Positions 9,615 to 31,520 of a stretch of DNA of 31,836 bases are shown in pieces. The DNA comes from a virus. The stretch lies in the IMG/VR virus record IMGVR_UViG_3300046525_000085, positions 1 to 31,836 of that record; one strand, given 5' to 3'. Each line of letters begins with the position of its first letter. The first letter of the stretch is position 1. The translations under genes and the position numbers were made by a program. Below the pieces are notes generated by a model. It was given only the letters and a program-made list of their open reading frames with translations, made no database searches and had not been told where the DNA came from.

Positions 9615-9992
9615 ATGAGCAATAAAACGTATTTGGGGAGCGTGACCCGAGAAACACGCCCATTCATTCTCGATGTCGAAAAGCTTCGCCGGGCAAATGC
9701 CAAAGTTACTGCAGCAAAAGCCTATAAGGCTGGGGATTTACTGACTTTATCCGACGCAAATGTGGTCGATCTAGCTGCAGATGAAAAAATTTGGAATGTT
9801 ATTTGTGGTCGTGATGTGAATGCAACTGAAGCAACACAGATGTCTGCTGATGGTGTGGAGCTGCCGATCTACTTCGGTGGCGTGTTTAGCATTGAAGCGG
9901 TGCGACTCTCTGGTGAATACCTAGTTACAGCAAAGTACGATGCCGCACGTGCTAAAGCGACTCTCAATAACATTGAATTCTCAAAAGTATAA
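9615..9992 (+). CDS. Head decoration protein (lambda gpD-like)
   Basis: 125 aa, immediately upstream of an E-family capsid gene as in lambda. Sequence resemblance to gpD is loose. Confidence 0.55.
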   Translation: MSNKTYLGSVTRETRPFILDVEKLRRANAKVTAAKAYKAGDLLTLSDANVVDLAADEKIWNVICGRDVNATEATQMSADGVELPIYFGGVFSIEAVRLSGEYLVTAKYDAARAKATLNNIEFSKV

Positions 9993-10004
9993 GGACTTTT
10001 AAAC

Positions 10005-11081
10005 ATGCCACAGTCATTTACAGTTAATGGCGCACCACTCGAATTGCTTGATGTTGGTGAGCTTGCTTTAATTCACACAAATTACAAGCCGATGGATACT
10101 TGGCTTTTAGATAAATTCTTTCCGAATCGTCCTGCATTTGACCGTGACGAAGTGCCACTTGCTGAAATCAATACGGTGCACGATTTAGCGCCATTGGTAG
10201 CCTCACATCAACCAGGTAAGCCTTTTGATACTAAACGTGCTGCTAAAGTTGAATTTGTGCAGCCTGCATATTACAAACCGAAAAATATGGTATCGCCAGC
10301 AAATGCTTTTGATGAAGCATTGATGGAGCGTTTACGTTCCGCAGGCATTATTTCTACTGGTGGTCAGCAATTATCTGATCAAGAAAAGATGATGATTGCT
10401 CAGATTGCGGTAATGAAGCGTAACCATGATGCAATTGATAACTCAGTCTTGTTGATGGCGACCGAGCTCTTACTCAAAGGTAAGTATATTCTTCAATCAG
10501 ATGACTATGAATATAACTTGGTGGATTACGAGCGAGATGCATCACTCACATTTACACCATTAACCCCTTGGAACCAAGCGGGTGCTAAGCCTGTAACGGA
10601 CATTGAAACGATTGAAACTCGCTTATTAGATGCTAATGGGGGGAGTTCAAAGGCTTATCTGATGTCAGGAAAGGTTTGGGCGGCTTTATTTGCAAATGAA
10701 GAATTTAAAGAGCGCTTCATTAAGCCATATGCAGGAATTTCGGTCCCATACAAACCTAGCTTAAATGTTCAGGAAGGCGCGTCATTTAAAGGTCATTTGG
10801 ACGATAAAGAACTTTGGGTGTTTGATGCAACATACCGCTTAAAAGATGGTGTTAAGCGATTCATCCCAAATGACTATTTCGGTGCTATTTCAGACCTCAA
10901 TGGCTCTATTGCTCAGTGCAAAATCAAAAACATGCTGGCAAATGGAGCTGTGCAGAAGTATTTCGATCGCCAGTGGTACAACGAAGATCCAAGCGGGATT
11001 TTCTTAATGACCGAATCAGCACCTCTTGCAGTGCCATCAAACAAAAATGGCGTATGTGGCGGCACAGGTTTCATTGTTTAA
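10005..11081 (+). CDS. Major capsid protein (lambda gpE family)
   Basis: Colinear blocks against lambda gpE from memory: LLDKFFPNR...EVPLAEI, PAYYKPKNMVSP, LLKGKYIL, TESAPLAVP. Confidence 0.88.
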   Translation: MPQSFTVNGAPLELLDVGELALIHTNYKPMDTWLLDKFFPNRPAFDRDEVPLAEINTVHDLAPLVASHQPGKPFDTKRAAKVEFVQPAYYKPKNMVSPANAFDEALMERLRSAGIISTGGQQLSDQEKMMIAQIAVMKRNHDAIDNSVLLMATELLLKGKYILQSDDYEYNLVDYERDASLTFTPLTPWNQAGAKPVTDIETIETRLLDANGGSSKAYLMSGKVWAALFANEEFKERFIKPYAGISVPYKPSLNVQEGASFKGHLDDKELWVFDATYRLKDGVKRFIPNDYFGAISDLNGSIAQCKIKNMLANGAVQKYFDRQWYNEDPSGIFLMTESAPLAVPSNKNGVCGGTGFIV

Positions 11082-11091
11082 GGAGGCATAG

Positions 11092-11445
11092 ATGCCAAAG
11101 TACATCGCAAAACAATCCATCGGGCATTTTATGCCAGGTGATGAAATCAAAGGGCTTGAAGATAAACAACTTCAGGCCCTTTTAGCATCTGGAGCTATTG
11201 AAGAAGAAAAAGCTGCAGAACAACCTAAGGCGGATGGTACCGCTGCTCAGCTTGCAAGCCTTGCTGCAGAAGTGGCGGAGCTGAAAGCAAACGAGGCAAT
11301 CCTTATTGAGGGTAAAGATAAAGCCGATGCAGAAGTGGCGGAGCTTCAAAAGAAAGTTGAAGGCTTGGAAAAATCACTAGCCTCATCAGAAGCCGCTTTA
11401 AAGAAAGCCACCACCGAAGCCAAGAAAGCTACTGCCGATAAATAA
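11092..11445 (+). CDS. Ala/Glu/Lys-rich coiled-coil protein, function unknown
   Basis: SD AAGGAGG upstream. Repetitive AEVAELK/AEVAELQ coiled-coil segments. Sits in the head module. Confidence 0.6.
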   Translation: MPKYIAKQSIGHFMPGDEIKGLEDKQLQALLASGAIEEEKAAEQPKADGTAAQLASLAAEVAELKANEAILIEGKDKADAEVAELQKKVEGLEKSLASSEAALKKATTEAKKATADK

Positions 11446-11453
11446 GGTGACCT

Positions 11454-11897
11454 ATGTATGCGACTGAAGCAAACCTAGTTGCGCGATTTGGTGGTGAGAT
11501 TGATGAATTGAAGTTGATGCATGCAAGTGCATCAACTGCTGTTCAGGATGCCTTACAGGATGCAACAGAAGAAATTAACGGCTACATCGGTGGTCGTTAT
11601 CCCTTACCTCTGCCAAATGTGCCAAGCAACTTAGAGCGAATGGCGTGTGATATCGCACGCTATCGGCTTTATTTCCAGCAACCCACTGAAGAAGTGCGTA
11701 AGCGTTATGAGGATGCAGTCAGCTTTTTAAAGCTGGTTGCAACTAATAAAACACATTTGCAAATTCAAAATGTGGAAACCAGCCAGATCGTGGATGACAC
11801 ACCTAAAAACAAACCATCCACAGCCCCAATAGGTACGACTTATACAGGTGGTGTTTTTGGTGATGGAGTCCTTGGAAAAATGCCGAGCATTAAGTGA
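11454..11897 (+). CDS. Head-tail connector-like protein (DUF1320 / Mu gp36-like)
   Basis: The N-terminus MYATEANLVARFGG.E...L is typical of DUF1320 proteins. Lies upstream of a Mu G-like gene. Confidence 0.6.
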   Translation: MYATEANLVARFGGEIDELKLMHASASTAVQDALQDATEEINGYIGGRYPLPLPNVPSNLERMACDIARYRLYFQQPTEEVRKRYEDAVSFLKLVATNKTHLQIQNVETSQIVDDTPKNKPSTAPIGTTYTGGVFGDGVLGKMPSIK

Positions 11898-11905
11898 GGT
11901 GATGC

Positions 11906-12457
11906 ATGCCAGGCGCATTAATTGAAATCCGTGCCGATGGTGAATCAACGATCTCTAAAGCTCTAAGTTTGTATGCTGACATTGAAGAGCGTCAGTCCAG
12001 ACTTTATGAACGCATGGGTGCAAAACTTGTCGACAATATCCGTAAACGGTGGGAGGTAGGAGAGGGCTTATACGGTAAGTGGCCATTATCCGTCAGGGTG
12101 ATGCGCCAAGGCGGTACCACGCTTCGCGATACATCGCGTCTAATGAACTCTATTACCAGCAACACAATCAGTAATGGTTTTGAGGTTGGTACAGACGTTG
12201 AGTATGGCGCGATCCATCATTTTGGCGGTGAGATCAAACATGAAGCTCGTCAAAGCTCCGTTTACTTCCGACAGAACCAAAAGACCGGTGTCGTCGGTAA
12301 TCGTTTTGTTCGTCAAACACGATCTAACTTTGCTCAAGCCGTGACCGTTGGTGCTTATACCGTGAAAATGCCTGCACGTGCGTGGTTGGGTTTAACGTCG
12401 GATGATGAGCAGGATCTCTTAAACATTGTTGAGGATGTAGTGCTAGATGAGCGATGA
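11906..12457 (+). CDS. Virion morphogenesis protein (Mu gpG-like)
   Basis: VGTDVEYGAIHHFGG and MPARAWLG match the conserved VGTN.xYAaiHqfGG and iPARPFLG blocks of the family. Confidence 0.8.
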   Translation: MPGALIEIRADGESTISKALSLYADIEERQSRLYERMGAKLVDNIRKRWEVGEGLYGKWPLSVRVMRQGGTTLRDTSRLMNSITSNTISNGFEVGTDVEYGAIHHFGGEIKHEARQSSVYFRQNQKTGVVGNRFVRQTRSNFAQAVTVGAYTVKMPARAWLGLTSDDEQDLLNIVEDVVLDER

Positions 12458-28642: not shown

Positions 28643-28939
28643 ATGAGTGAATTTAAAAAAGTGAGCAATGTGCTTCTTGAGTCTAACGGTATTTATTTTA
28701 TTGAATGCCCTGGATGTAAAACTTTGCATCCATTTCATGTTGATCCAAAACATAAAATTCGTTGGGATTTCAATGGTGATTTAGAGAAACCAACATTTAG
28801 CCCAAGCTTAATGGTAAATCAAGGACACCCTAGCCAATGTCATTCATTTGTCACGGATGGAAAAATTCAGTTCCTATCTGATTGCCATCATGGATTAGCG
28901 GGGCAAACAGTTGACCTTCCTGGCGTGGAGGAATTTTGA
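28643..28939 (+). CDS. Cys/His-rich 98-aa protein inside the lysis cassette (DUF6527-like?)
   Basis: CPGC...H.FH...C.H....DCHH pattern. Abuts the endolysin stop (TAGATG) and overlaps the spanin start (ATGA). Family name is from memory only. Confidence 0.55.
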   Translation: MSEFKKVSNVLLESNGIYFIECPGCKTLHPFHVDPKHKIRWDFNGDLEKPTFSPSLMVNQGHPSQCHSFVTDGKIQFLSDCHHGLAGQTVDLPGVEEF

Positions 28940-29448
28940 TGCCTTTACTTTTATGGATTTGGAATAACAAACGCTGGACTTTAATCCTTGTGCTTTTGAT
29001 CTATGGATTATTTCAAACATGGCAATCCAACTCACTGGCAGGTGATTTAAGCAAGGCTAAGGCCGATTGTAAAACTAAGGTACAGCAAGAAGTCGATAAG
29101 GCAGTTAAGTCTTATCAAGTTGCAATCACAAATGCCAAAGAACAGAAAGCCATCACTGAAAAGGCTTGGTCAGATAAATATATTGAGGTAGAACAGAATG
29201 CGATTAAAAAAATACAAGATGCGAATGCTGCCGCTCGTAGTGCTGACTTGGCTGCTAGTGGGTTGTCAAAGCAACTCAGTGAAGCAAACAAACGTCTGTC
29301 CACAGCTCCCCGTCAAACCATCATTGAATATACCATTACCAACAGTGAGTTATTCGAAACTTGCACAGCAGAATATCGAAGCATGGCAGAAAAAGCAGAT
29401 GGCCACTCAATTGATGTCGAACGATTGAGTGAGGCGTGGCCTGAGTGA
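28936..29448 (+). CDS. i-spanin (Rz-like)
   Basis: N-terminal TM (WTLILVLLIYGLF), then a long coiled-coil periplasmic domain. Contains an embedded lipoprotein ORF in another frame. Confidence 0.8.
   Translation: MMPLLLWIWNNKRWTLILVLLIYGLFQTWQSNSLAGDLSKAKADCKTKVQQEVDKAVKSYQVAITNAKEQKAITEKAWSDKYIEVEQNAIKKIQDANAAARSADLAASGLSKQLSEANKRLSTAPRQTIIEYTITNSELFETCTAEYRSMAEKADGHSIDVERLSEAWPE
29198..29428 (+). CDS. o-spanin (Rz1-like lipoprotein), fully embedded in the i-spanin gene
   Basis: Lipobox LLVGC after a signal sequence. Pro-rich mature part. Possible starts at 29198, 29219 or 29225. Confidence 0.8.
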   Translation: MRLKKYKMRMLPLVVLTWLLVGCQSNSVKQTNVCPQLPVKPSLNIPLPTVSYSKLAQQNIEAWQKKQMATQLMSND

Positions 29449-29554
29449 ATTATGAGTAGTGCATTCTGCTTTCAGGATGCACGGCCCATTCGATTTCAAC
29501 TGTATGAGGCTGTTGCTGATGTCCAAGCAGCATCTAATACAGAGCCATAAAAGT

Positions 29555-30601
29555 TTACTGTTTTCTATTATTTAATTTATTTTTTCTTTTAAGTCCTCTA
29601 TCTTTGAAAAAACTAAATACTCGCCCCAAAATGTGATATTTAAAGAATCCAAAATGATAACTATCATCGGACAAATCAATTTTTTTCGAAGCATCAATCT
29701 TATAATATTTATTAATCCATTCTAACTCTTTGAGCTGAGAATGAACTTCGAAGCTAACCCACGAAAACTTACCGCTATTAAGGGCGGCCTGAATTACATT
29801 TTTGACATGATCCTTTCCATGAGAGGTCCACAATACGTCATGATCAAATGATAATAGCCCGTCGAAATAAACTTCATCCTTATGAGGGGATATCGAGAAA
29901 AAAGAATCTAGACCATCATGAGTTTTTAACTCTATAAAATATAAAACATTATTACCAACAGGCCATTTCTTTTGACCTATAAATTTACCACCTTGGCCAA
30001 CAATATGAGCTGTATAGTAGTTTGTTAAAGCCTGTTTTATTACATTAGAAAACTTAAGTTGACCACAAACAACAATGCCCTCTATCGTATCTAGAACAAT
30101 CCGTTTTTTTATTTTTCTATCATGAAGCACATCTATAAGCCCAACAACTGGATGCATGTTAGCAAAGTATCCAAGCCGAGGTGGGAAGCTATGTACAACG
30201 CATTCATATGGTTTTAACGTAATATATTCATCTTCATTAAAATTATCATTATTAAGCTTAATAAAAATATTCTCAGAAATTTTTATGTAAAAGTTCTTTA
30301 TTATTAGTGGCTTATCTTTCTTATTAACAAGAATAATCGAAGTAATATAATAATCATTATTCGAAGTATCACTAGACATCTGGAAATTAGCGGCTACATC
30401 AACCCCTGACTTTCTCCAATAATTTCTAAAAGCAATATAAATACCCAATATAGACAAAATTAATGTTGGTAAAAAATAGACTGGGGTTTTTTGTAAAAAT
30501 AATTTAAAATCAATGATATAAACGGATTCGATAAACGTGTAATACCATCCAACAATAAAGCAGACTAGTATAAATATGCCAATCTCTATTTTCTCTCTCA
30601 T
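29555..30601 (-). CDS. 348-aa membrane protein, function unknown (two N-terminal TM helices plus a domain of about 290 aa)
   Basis: Long ORF in a very AT-rich segment. Helices at about residues 6-24 and 41-58. Basic C-terminal tail KDRGLKRKNKLNNRKQ. No motif recognised. Confidence 0.75.
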   Translation of the reverse strand: MREKIEIGIFILVCFIVGWYYTFIESVYIIDFKLFLQKTPVYFLPTLILSILGIYIAFRNYWRKSGVDVAANFQMSSDTSNNDYYITSIILVNKKDKPLIIKNFYIKISENIFIKLNNDNFNEDEYITLKPYECVVHSFPPRLGYFANMHPVVGLIDVLHDRKIKKRIVLDTIEGIVVCGQLKFSNVIKQALTNYYTAHIVGQGGKFIGQKKWPVGNNVLYFIELKTHDGLDSFFSISPHKDEVYFDGLLSFDHDVLWTSHGKDHVKNVIQAALNSGKFSWVSFEVHSQLKELEWINKYYKIDASKKIDLSDDSYHFGFFKYHILGRVFSFFKDRGLKRKNKLNNRKQ

Positions 30602-30658
30602 TATTAAATAACCTAATCATCTACACAGCATTAAATACACGCAAAAAAACTTTAATAT

Positions 30659-31219
30659 TTAACTTTCGCTATTAAAAAAATCTTTATAAGATCCTGATTT
30701 TTCACCTATTTTTAAACTTTTTCCAGTTAGTTTCATTTTGTATTCTTTATTATTTTGGGGGTGTTTGTAGGTTGCTTCAAAGCATTCATCTAATTTGAAA
30801 ATGTCTTCGCCTGAAAATTTTAAGCCAAAGTTTTTTGCAACTCTATCAAACACTTCTATGCATTTTTCTCTGTTATCTAGTTTACTTTCATAGTTGTTAA
30901 TAACATTCGCAATATCCCAGAAAAAACGCTTTAAAATATTTATATCGCTCAAAGCATTTTTTATTTCTTTTTCAAGTCGTTGTGGGATTTTATCTAATTT
31001 TTTATTTTTATTTTTAATAATATGTACAACTGTACCTTTATTCGAATTTAAAGAAATTTTTATTACTACATGTTGCAGTTTTCCATCCATTGGAAAGTTA
31101 GTTCTTTTGTCTAAATGAACATCTTTATTTTCACCTTCAAAAGATTTAATTTCTTTATTTCCCCAATTGTGATCATCAATCTGAATTGTTTGATCTTTAA
31201 TTAGACTTATTAAGCTCAT
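30659..31219 (-). CDS. 186-aa soluble Lys/Asn-rich protein, function unknown
   Basis: ORF 57 nt upstream of, and co-oriented with, the 348-aa gene, with the same AT-rich composition. No motif recognised. Confidence 0.7.
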   Translation of the reverse strand: MSLISLIKDQTIQIDDHNWGNKEIKSFEGENKDVHLDKRTNFPMDGKLQHVVIKISLNSNKGTVVHIIKNKNKKLDKIPQRLEKEIKNALSDINILKRFFWDIANVINNYESKLDNREKCIEVFDRVAKNFGLKFSGEDIFKLDECFEATYKHPQNNKEYKMKLTGKSLKIGEKSGSYKDFFNSES

Positions 31220-31520
31220 TAAGTTTCTCTAAAATTAACACTATACGCCTTATACCAAAATCTTGAGATTTTTATATAAGGATCAAAGCCTTAATCATAT
31301 ACGTTCTAGTACTTATTTGGCTATAGCGTATTTTTTCGTAATTCATCTTGTTTCACACATACAGTTTAATCAAACTAATGATTTAAATCCTTAGCATTCA
31401 TTAACTATAAAATATCGTTAACGACAATCAACATACCTTCCCATCTAAAATAATCCCTAGTCAAACTTCCACTACTCATCGACCAGCCAAGTTTTAGCTG
31501 GTGCAATGCAATATCTGGGA

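Follow-up and report, generated by a model that had tools for sequence, protein, structure and literature searches.

A horizontally exchanged AT-rich cassette in Acinetobacter prophages carries two stacked cargo genes, one of them a candidate membrane-anchored exclusion protein

The IMG/VR virus record IMGVR_UViG_3300046525_000085 was analyzed over its whole length (31,836 nucleotides (nt), positions 1 to 31,836; hereafter the window), with a focus on two adjacent genes near its end, which encode proteins of 186 and 348 amino acids (aa) and are referred to as A and B, respectively. As evidenced by its open reading frames (ORFs) and their annotation, the window corresponds to the late part of a tailed Acinetobacter prophage, with genes encoding terminase, a Mu-type portal, a MuF-like protein, an E-type major capsid protein, and a tape measure protein, together with lysis genes in which holin and lysozyme lie upstream of an i-spanin with an embedded o-spanin. 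The coding strand switches straight after the spanin stop codon at 29448, and at about 29500 the guanine-plus-cytosine (GC) content drops from ~0.44 to 0.27–0.30. The AT-rich cassette containing A and B (Table 1) has a GC content of 0.298, compared with a mean of 0.432 (standard deviation (sd) 0.031, minimum 0.354) in same-size segments elsewhere in the window, i.e., ~4.3 sd under that mean. These results bore out what a first-pass annotation of the same DNA had reported, namely a shift to AT-rich composition with a strand flip after the spanins and two minus-strand ORFs, 57 nt apart and converging on the lysis genes, whose coordinates matched exactly. Comparison with other loci further revealed that A and B do not form a conserved pair; they are single-gene cargo units ("morons") that lie stacked in one cassette. 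This cassette occupies a cargo hotspot bordered by the lysis genes on one side and the integrase-proximal prophage end on the other; in kind, it is ordinary prophage cargo.

Table 1. Coordinates of the cassette, its genes, and adjoining features in the window
Feature	Position	Strand	Basis and remarks
i-spanin gene	28936..29448	+	ORF call; last late gene; converges on B
o-spanin gene, embedded in i-spanin	29198-29428	+	lipobox LVGC
AT-rich cassette with A and B	29459..31498		2,040 bp; horizontally exchanged
Gene B, 348 aa	29555..30601	-	member of a large unnamed membrane-anchored family
B residues 319-347, long C-terminal helix	29561..29647	-	model; aromatic/hydrophobic first, then polybasic
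B residues 65-318, cytoplasmic domain	29648..30409	-	model secondary structure and alignment columns
B residues 43-64, family-wide anchor helix	30410..30475	-	alignments; ends in N-Y-x-R-K-S-G
B residues 2-24, first transmembrane helix	30530..30598	-	AlphaFold2 model; extra helix of the Acinetobacter clade
A-B spacer, 57 nt	30602..30658	-	possible B promoter
Gene A, 186 aa	30659..31219	-	soluble; conserved acidic/His N-terminal half
Promoter-like site TTGATT-16 nt-TATAGT	31404..31431	-	consensus scan, 9/12 matches; inside umuC remnant; weak candidate promoter for A
umuC remnant, last ~28 codons	31405..31488	-	tblastn with L001 UmuC residues 409-436
DUF6500 gene, 72 aa	31521-31739	-	PF20110, E 7.6e-32; adjoins umuC remnant at cassette edge; probably further cargo

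A segment of Acinetobacter johnsonii WURO01000009 (comparison locus L001, positions 9722-11761; comparison loci carry L numbers throughout) was 97.9% identical to the cassette over 2,040 base pairs (bp) with sharp edges, and three further loci (L002-L004) matched it in the same way. The prophage backbone of L001 is otherwise unrelated, with a GDSL-lipase tail protein and a different lysozyme. The presence of a sharp-edged cassette in an unrelated backbone indicates that one cassette moved between prophages, and the AT-rich block is thus a 2-kb unit exchanged horizontally. It was absent from 36 related prophage ends collected with the i-spanin as anchor. No repeats were found at its edges and no Rfam families inside it, and a megablast search of the window end against phage records gave no match.

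Upstream of A, the remnant of umuC was recognized at 71% identity (E 6.6e-10) with its stop codon in register. Locus L001 has the full umuD-umuC-A-B order, and umuC fragments lie upstream of A-B, at contig ends, in L002-L004. Taken together, the remnant and the order in L001 show that the cassette once lay just downstream of a prophage umuDC, the ancestral order being umuD-umuC-A-B, with umuDC since deleted in the window. Moreover, B was located directly 3' of umuC, on the same strand and with a gap of 36–60 nt, in 14 of 14 IMG/VR Acinetobacter prophage loci (L042-L055) and in four other loci (L013-L015 and L022); umuC is intact in some of these and cut to its last 168 residues in others. None of them carries A, which thus looks as though it was inserted between umuC and B in a single lineage. 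The umuC-B linkage spans B lineages that are only about 44% identical to each other.

Adjacency of A and B was confined to L001-L004, i.e., to copies ~98% identical to the cassette in the window. In more than 25 other loci B was present without A, its carriers including small Rep3/Mob plasmids and at least four other, unrelated types of prophage (L009-L022, L034, and L042-L055, plus the distant members L021 and L023-L033), and these homologues showed 39–57% identity in the Acinetobacter prophage and plasmid settings. Specifically, B lies between the integrase and a lambda-like lysis/tail region in L009-L012, follows umuDC in a different prophage in L013-L015, converges on P2-like tail genes in L016, and is carried by small Rep3/MobA plasmids beside AbiEii, OLD-like ATPase, or RelE/HTH genes in L017-L020 and L034. 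A 165-aa gene upstream of plasmid-borne B was considered as a relative of A and rejected on comparison. One plasmid contig (L017, 1-2616) combines the B homologue with an OLD-like TOPRIM/AAA ATPase and an AbiEii-family gene, which are defense-type cargo. In L055 (6001-6956), tblastn recovered the B homologue in two pieces lying in different frames (residues 9-161 and 163-335), and it is apparently a frameshifted pseudogene.

Likewise, A was found without B in three of its four lineages (L005-L008, L038-L041, and L092-L093). A copy 73% identical lies in a variable region of the Acinetobacter baumannii chromosome (L005-L008), a 66% identical copy lies between the end of a phosphatidylserine-decarboxylase-like gene and a LysR fragment (L092), and a relative with 35% identity directly follows a tyrosine integrase in a Mob-carrying element from human-gut metagenomes (L038-L041). 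No A relatives were found in the phage, plasmid, and IMG/VR collections. Between the window and the A. baumannii copy, DNA homology covers the A gene alone (window 30693-31241), and since it stops at the gene edges, A moves as a single-gene unit. The ratios of nonsynonymous to synonymous substitution rates (dN/dS) between diverged copies were 0.07–0.25 for A and 0.11–0.25 for B; both ORFs are thus real genes under purifying selection. Each is also found alone elsewhere, indicating two separate cargo units.

The surroundings of A share one trait, in that a protein with two N-terminal transmembrane (TM) helices is encoded within two genes of A in three of the four A lineages. This protein is B in the window, one of 262 aa in A. 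baumannii, and one of 246 aa in the gut element. These three neighbors are mutually non-homologous, B included (BLASTP E 0.9; hhalign probability 0.3–0.6%). In the gut element (L038, 3928-6979), the gene order is tyrosine integrase, the A-like gene, a gene for a 172-aa protein whose C-terminus is rich in Cys, that for the 246-aa two-TM protein, and Mob genes, and the A-like, 172-aa, and 246-aa proteins had no Pfam or PADLOC match at curated thresholds. In the A. baumannii region (L005), a very AT-rich gene on the minus strand (10597-12288) converges on the A copy and encodes a 563-aa Asn/Lys/Ile-rich protein with no Pfam or PADLOC match; a YjhX-toxin/GNAT pair lies in the same variable region.

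Gene B belongs to a large unnamed family. Its close homologues are of conserved length and fall into 20 clusters, and a profile built from 20 close homologues was searched against 1.84 billion representative proteins, with clusters at 50% identity. At least 339 clusters were retrieved at E <= 1e-3 and 220 at E <= 1e-10, most of them ~300 aa long and aligned from the second helix of B onward. Sources included Verrucomicrobiia, the acidobacterial Candidatus Angelobacter, Francisellaceae, Duganella, and a Vibrio prophage element, and the family spans several phyla. A scan of species-representative genomes with the close B alignment uncovered only four loci. In the Vibrio element (L021, 4965-5966; Vibrio phage 10N.286.54.F9_PE001, PQ189358), the B relative occupies the extreme end of a 186/P2-like element, immediately following a CI-type repressor, a PH-domain gene, and the integrase; this integrase-proximal position is the same as in Acinetobacter but belongs to another phage lineage and host genus. 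Literature searches for the B family, the Vibrio element, and umuDC-linked cargo returned background only.

The first-pass annotation had seen no recognizable domains in A or B and had supposed that neither belonged to a described family, and both statements hold. No significant match to either protein was detected in Pfam, PADLOC, PHROGs, or NCBIfam, and 94 members of the B family had no Pfam, PADLOC (v2.0.0), or PDB-sequence match. Homology to described defense systems, for which a PADLOC search had been proposed, was therefore not found for A, B, or the 94 members. Eleven of the 94 weakly matched phrog_14996 (best E 2.9e-7), an unannotated PHROG, so that catalogued phage proteins already include part of the family, although B itself has no match to it. 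A match of B residues 156-221 to the Cas1 N-terminal family was rejected as chance, with 14.4 bits against a cut-off of 22.3 in Pfam and 12.3 against 385 in NCBIfam, and was common to just one of the 94 members.

The architecture of the family points to a membrane-anchored cytoplasmic protein. By hydropathy, a single TM segment was predicted in 112 of 147 family members and two in 13. The two N-terminal helices of B estimated earlier at residues 6-24 and 41-58 were recovered by the model with slightly different limits (Table 1). In the 15 residues after the anchor helix the mean number of lysines plus arginines (K+R) was 3.18, compared with 0.59 in the 15 residues before it, and this asymmetry places the C-terminal body of ~280 aa in the cytoplasm and the short N-terminus outside. 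Two members (P0032 and P0123) have a signal peptide or lipobox ahead of the anchor, in agreement with an N-out orientation. The family is accordingly N-out/C-in and membrane-anchored. The basic tail described in the first-pass annotation is also present, with a net charge of +9 in the last 30 residues of B and a mean of +5.9 over the 94 members; residues Y322, G326, and N341 of the C-terminal helix are conserved in at least 77% of members, and a hydrophobic-moment scan was also made of this helix.

An AlphaFold2 model of B built on the 94-sequence alignment reached a predicted local distance difference test (pLDDT) score of 91.5 and a predicted TM-score (pTM) of 0.73. It comprises the two helices, a beta-sandwich (~67-153), a mixed alpha/beta part (~166-302), and the C-terminal helix (319-347). 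The beta-sandwich carries the motif (E/V)-N93-x-K95-D96-(R/K) and the alpha/beta part L170-x-T172-x-x-G175. Residues K64, which belongs to the juxtamembrane motif N-Y-x-R-K-S-G, N93, D96, and G175 are invariant in the 94 sequences, conservation reaches at least 90% at K95, Y145, L170, T172, N194, and G216, and I101 is likewise near-invariant; the model and alignment would thereby place an invariant K/N/K/D cluster next to the membrane. Both a moderate model (pLDDT 69.7) and the high-confidence one (pLDDT 91.5) were compared with the PDB by Foldseek, the latter also with BFVD. No PDB match was found at E <= 1e-3, and the TM-score normalized to the query (TMq) did not exceed 0.22. Partial matches were generic Ig/ApaG-like sandwiches or helix-plus-sandwich proteins, and the BFVD matches were just two small uncharacterized phage proteins.

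In every phylum sampled, B-like genes are AT-shifted relative to their host loci (e.g., GC 0.38 vs 0.60 and 0.45 vs 0.58). The distant members are stand-alone genes as well; one is located at the edge of a small integrase-bearing element (L026-L028), and one adjoins a NACHT NTPase (L023-L025).

For A, only five close clusters were found, with homologues of conserved length, in addition to the gut metagenome relatives. Its first ~60 residues are strikingly conserved, gut relatives included, with D15, D16, H17, G20, E23, K25, D33, H35, D37, K38, T40, and N41 invariant, and its C-terminal half, judged by eye, is probably helical. No family match and no PDB sequence match was obtained, the profile search included. 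The conserved Asp/His/Glu/Lys cluster suggests a small metal-dependent enzyme, possibly nuclease-like. As a lead only, the spacing D-x6-E-x-K matches that of the PD-(D/E)xK enzyme MutH; D16-x6-E23-x-K25 is invariant in A across phyla, and Pfam and PDB sequence searches gave no supporting match. On this evidence A would be a separate soluble cargo protein.

The slot occupied by the cassette was surveyed in the 36 related prophage ends. It contained 100 ORFs in 80 clusters 3' of the spanin, neither A nor B among them; umuC/umuD delimited it in four loci, and integrases did so in many others. Thirty representative slot proteins were scanned with PADLOC and Pfam. Strong PADLOC matches were obtained to PDC-S45 (7e-114), NsnA of the Menshen system (4e-65; PMC12065111), and PD-T4-2_A (1e-54), and weaker ones to HEC-05, HEC-06, and a type II restriction enzyme. 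In Pfam, the families matched were GmrSD_N, RiboL-PSP HEPN, and Trypsin_2. The first-pass annotation had asked whether known defense genes occupy the same slot in related prophages, and they do (PDC-S45, NsnA, PD-T4-2_A, HEC-05/06, GmrSD_N, and HEPN_RiboL-PSP), so the slot is a cargo hotspot rich in defense genes. Among the umuC-linked loci, genes for a PAAR-domain protein of 279 aa and a product of ~214 aa come after B in L013 (12169-13649), L022 (9150-10630), and most of L043-L054; the latter gene had no Pfam or PADLOC match, and the two look like a prophage-borne type VI secretion system (T6SS) toxin/immunity pair. In L013 (7416-9965), a SRAP (YedK-like) gene precedes umuD-umuC, and a SRAP gene is also reported next to umuC (A1S_2014-2015) in the cryptic prophage CP9 of A. 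baumannii ATCC 17978 (PMC3978071).

With regard to expression, B keeps a short AT-rich leader in every context, whether after A, after umuC, after the integrase, or on plasmids, with a -10-like T-T-x-A-A-T box ~25–35 nt before its start. This box, conserved in all contexts, suggests that B probably has its own promoter, although the consensus scan called no promoter in the A-B spacer. At the position equivalent to the promoter-like site in the umuC remnant (Table 1), the umuC-B lineage reads TTGACT-17 nt-TTAAAT.

Elsewhere in the window, a 98-aa Cys/His-rich ORF (28643-28939) lies between the lysozyme and spanin genes. A tRNA-Met gene (853-929; ARAGORN and Rfam) and a full-length match to the Rfam small RNA family Pseudomonadales-1 (RF03046; 1103-1274, 110 bits, E 3e-25) both lie 5' of the terminase genes, at the left end of the window, where GC is lower.

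The explanation considered best, to which we give about an even chance, is that a hotspot carries A and B as independent, stacked cargo genes, with B as a single-gene, membrane-anchored candidate for exclusion or abortive infection. B would then act alone, as a superinfection-exclusion or an abortive-infection protein, with its N-terminal anchor and basic C-terminal helix holding the cytoplasmic domain against the inner leaflet. At this site, incoming phage DNA or ejection proteins crossing the inner membrane could be intercepted or, alternatively, sensed, with the membrane being perturbed in the latter case. In the umuC-B arrangement, B may be read through from the DNA-damage-induced umuDC promoter. 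The interpretation given in the first-pass annotation is thus supported in part: the foreign composition, the defense-bearing slot, and the undescribed families hold, whereas its sensor/effector pair of two genes does not stand.

Several observations weigh against this explanation. That B restricts phage we infer from its location and architecture alone, and no known effector domain (nuclease, pore-former, or NADase) was found in it. Only one of 50,697 phage records, the Vibrio element, encodes a B relative, a scan of IMG/VR with a core-family pattern found nothing, and the members in L029-L033 lie in chromosomal regions without an obvious mobile element. Transposases, recombinases, and numerous uncharacterized genes also occupy the slot, and the position is thus suggestive, not diagnostic. 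Promoter-like sites in the region were no commoner than in shuffled sequence, and the hairpins 3' of B were not distinctive (terminator fold, z-score -0.97, not significant). Finally, the unrelated two-TM proteins near A in three of its four lineages leave some room for a looser partnership of A with membrane proteins.

It was proposed in the first-pass annotation that A and B form one RexA/RexB-like abortive-infection or exclusion system, in which soluble A senses infection and activates membrane-bound B. Their common strand, the 57-nt spacing, the joint movement as a 2,040-bp cassette between prophages, and the recurrent two-TM neighbors of A would fit such a system. We nevertheless regard it as very unlikely, given that the two genes co-occur in a single lineage of nearly identical cassettes and are otherwise found apart, that the membrane neighbors of A are homologous neither to one another nor to B, that the sister lineage with B directly after umuC makes A look inserted, and that neither protein showed RexA or RexB homology in the Pfam and PADLOC scans. 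In another reading, B is tied to umuDC (DNA polymerase V) and the DNA-damage response, as a damage-induced membrane protein serving prophage induction or damage tolerance and not anti-phage defense. The umuC-B linkage across diverged B lineages and the descent of the window lineage from umuD-umuC-A-B would be explained by it, and prophage umuDC alleles of A. baumannii are induced by DNA damage via RecA and UmuDAb (PMC3978071). It is considered improbable, since B remains intact beside umuC cut to its last 168 residues (L022, L047-L052, and L054) and also where umuDC is missing, i.e., in the window, in L009-L012 and L016, on the plasmids L017-L020 and L034, and in all distant phyla; moreover, unrelated cargo also lies 3' of umuC in related prophages (L057, L058, L065, and L068), so umuC may merely mark the edge of the hotspot.

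A further reading, unlikely in our view, regards B as a non-defense accessory membrane protein of mobile elements, such as an orphan immunity or accessory protein of a T6SS (PAAR) toxin, or an envelope or lipid modifier. The PAAR protein and ~214-aa gene that follow B in L013-L015, L022, and most of L043-L054, as well as a PAAR cluster 2.4 kb from B in L016, are consistent with a T6SS connection; the invariant K/N/K/D cluster by the membrane might be a binding site for a small ligand or the head group of a lipid, and several distant members occur in chromosomal contexts without phage genes. Nevertheless, no PAAR gene accompanies B in the window, on the plasmids, or in L009, and B lies upstream of the PAAR gene and separated from it, an unusual place for an immunity gene; the AT-shift, patchy distribution, and carriage by mobile elements are more typical of conflict genes. 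A wider and improbable reading would make the B family a novel kind of immunity, exerted by one protein anchored to the cytoplasmic membrane on its inner face, blocking or sensing incoming foreign DNA and wired to umuDC in Acinetobacter prophages, with A as an enzymatic module teaming up with interchangeable, non-homologous membrane effectors, of which B would be one.

What is new here is a large, unnamed, confidently folded B family without a whole-fold match, the definition of the hotspot, and the umuC-B synteny. If B restricts phage alone, it would add to the membrane-level defenses a widespread family absent from the libraries searched, which comes with a high-confidence model and with targets for mutation (K64, N93, K95, D96, and the basic tail), in a genus of active phage-therapy interest. 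The hotspot, from the lysis cassette to umuDC or the integrase, is a practical place to mine for defense candidates. In addition, the case illustrates that a soluble gene beside a membrane gene in foreign DNA is insufficient to call a two-gene system, as the synteny of diverged relatives split the two.

In comparison with known systems, the cassette resembles morons such as lambda bor/lom and HK97 gp15, which are independent transcription units (PMC3594210), in its deviant AT-rich composition, its location at the late-operon end between one functional module and the next, its presence or absence between related phages, and its exchange as a small sharp-edged block between unrelated prophages. 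It differs from them in that two unrelated cargo genes are stacked, that the promoters of A and B are candidates and no distinctive terminator fold was found 3' of B, and that the library scans revealed no sequence relationship of A or B to any characterized moron product. With RexA/RexB it shares a soluble-protein gene beside a membrane-protein gene on a prophage, whereas the A-B pair is not conserved and no homology beyond chance-level matches was found for A or B in Pfam and PADLOC at E <= 1. RexB is a small four-helix polytopic channel protein, unlike B with its anchor of one or two N-terminal helices and a folded cytoplasmic domain of ~280 aa. PDC-S45, HEC-05/06, PD-T4-2, and Menshen NsnA, mostly poorly characterized cargo themselves, occupy the same slot from spanin to umuDC/integrase in related Acinetobacter prophages, although B, 93 relatives, and A have no significant PADLOC match.

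The closest parallels to B as interpreted here are the single-gene inner-membrane exclusion proteins, such as P22 SieA, HK97 gp15, lactococcal Sie2009, and T4 Imm, most of which are much smaller than B. None of them is known to share detectable sequence with B, and B differs from them in its two-domain cytoplasmic body of ~280 aa with a conserved basic C-terminal helix and in its occurrence also on plasmids and in distant phyla. Like these proteins, B is prophage-encoded and stand-alone, is held by an N-terminal cytoplasmic-membrane anchor, and is encoded at the prophage end near the lysis and integrase genes, the superinfection-exclusion proteins of temperate phages having been reviewed previously (PMC11436027).

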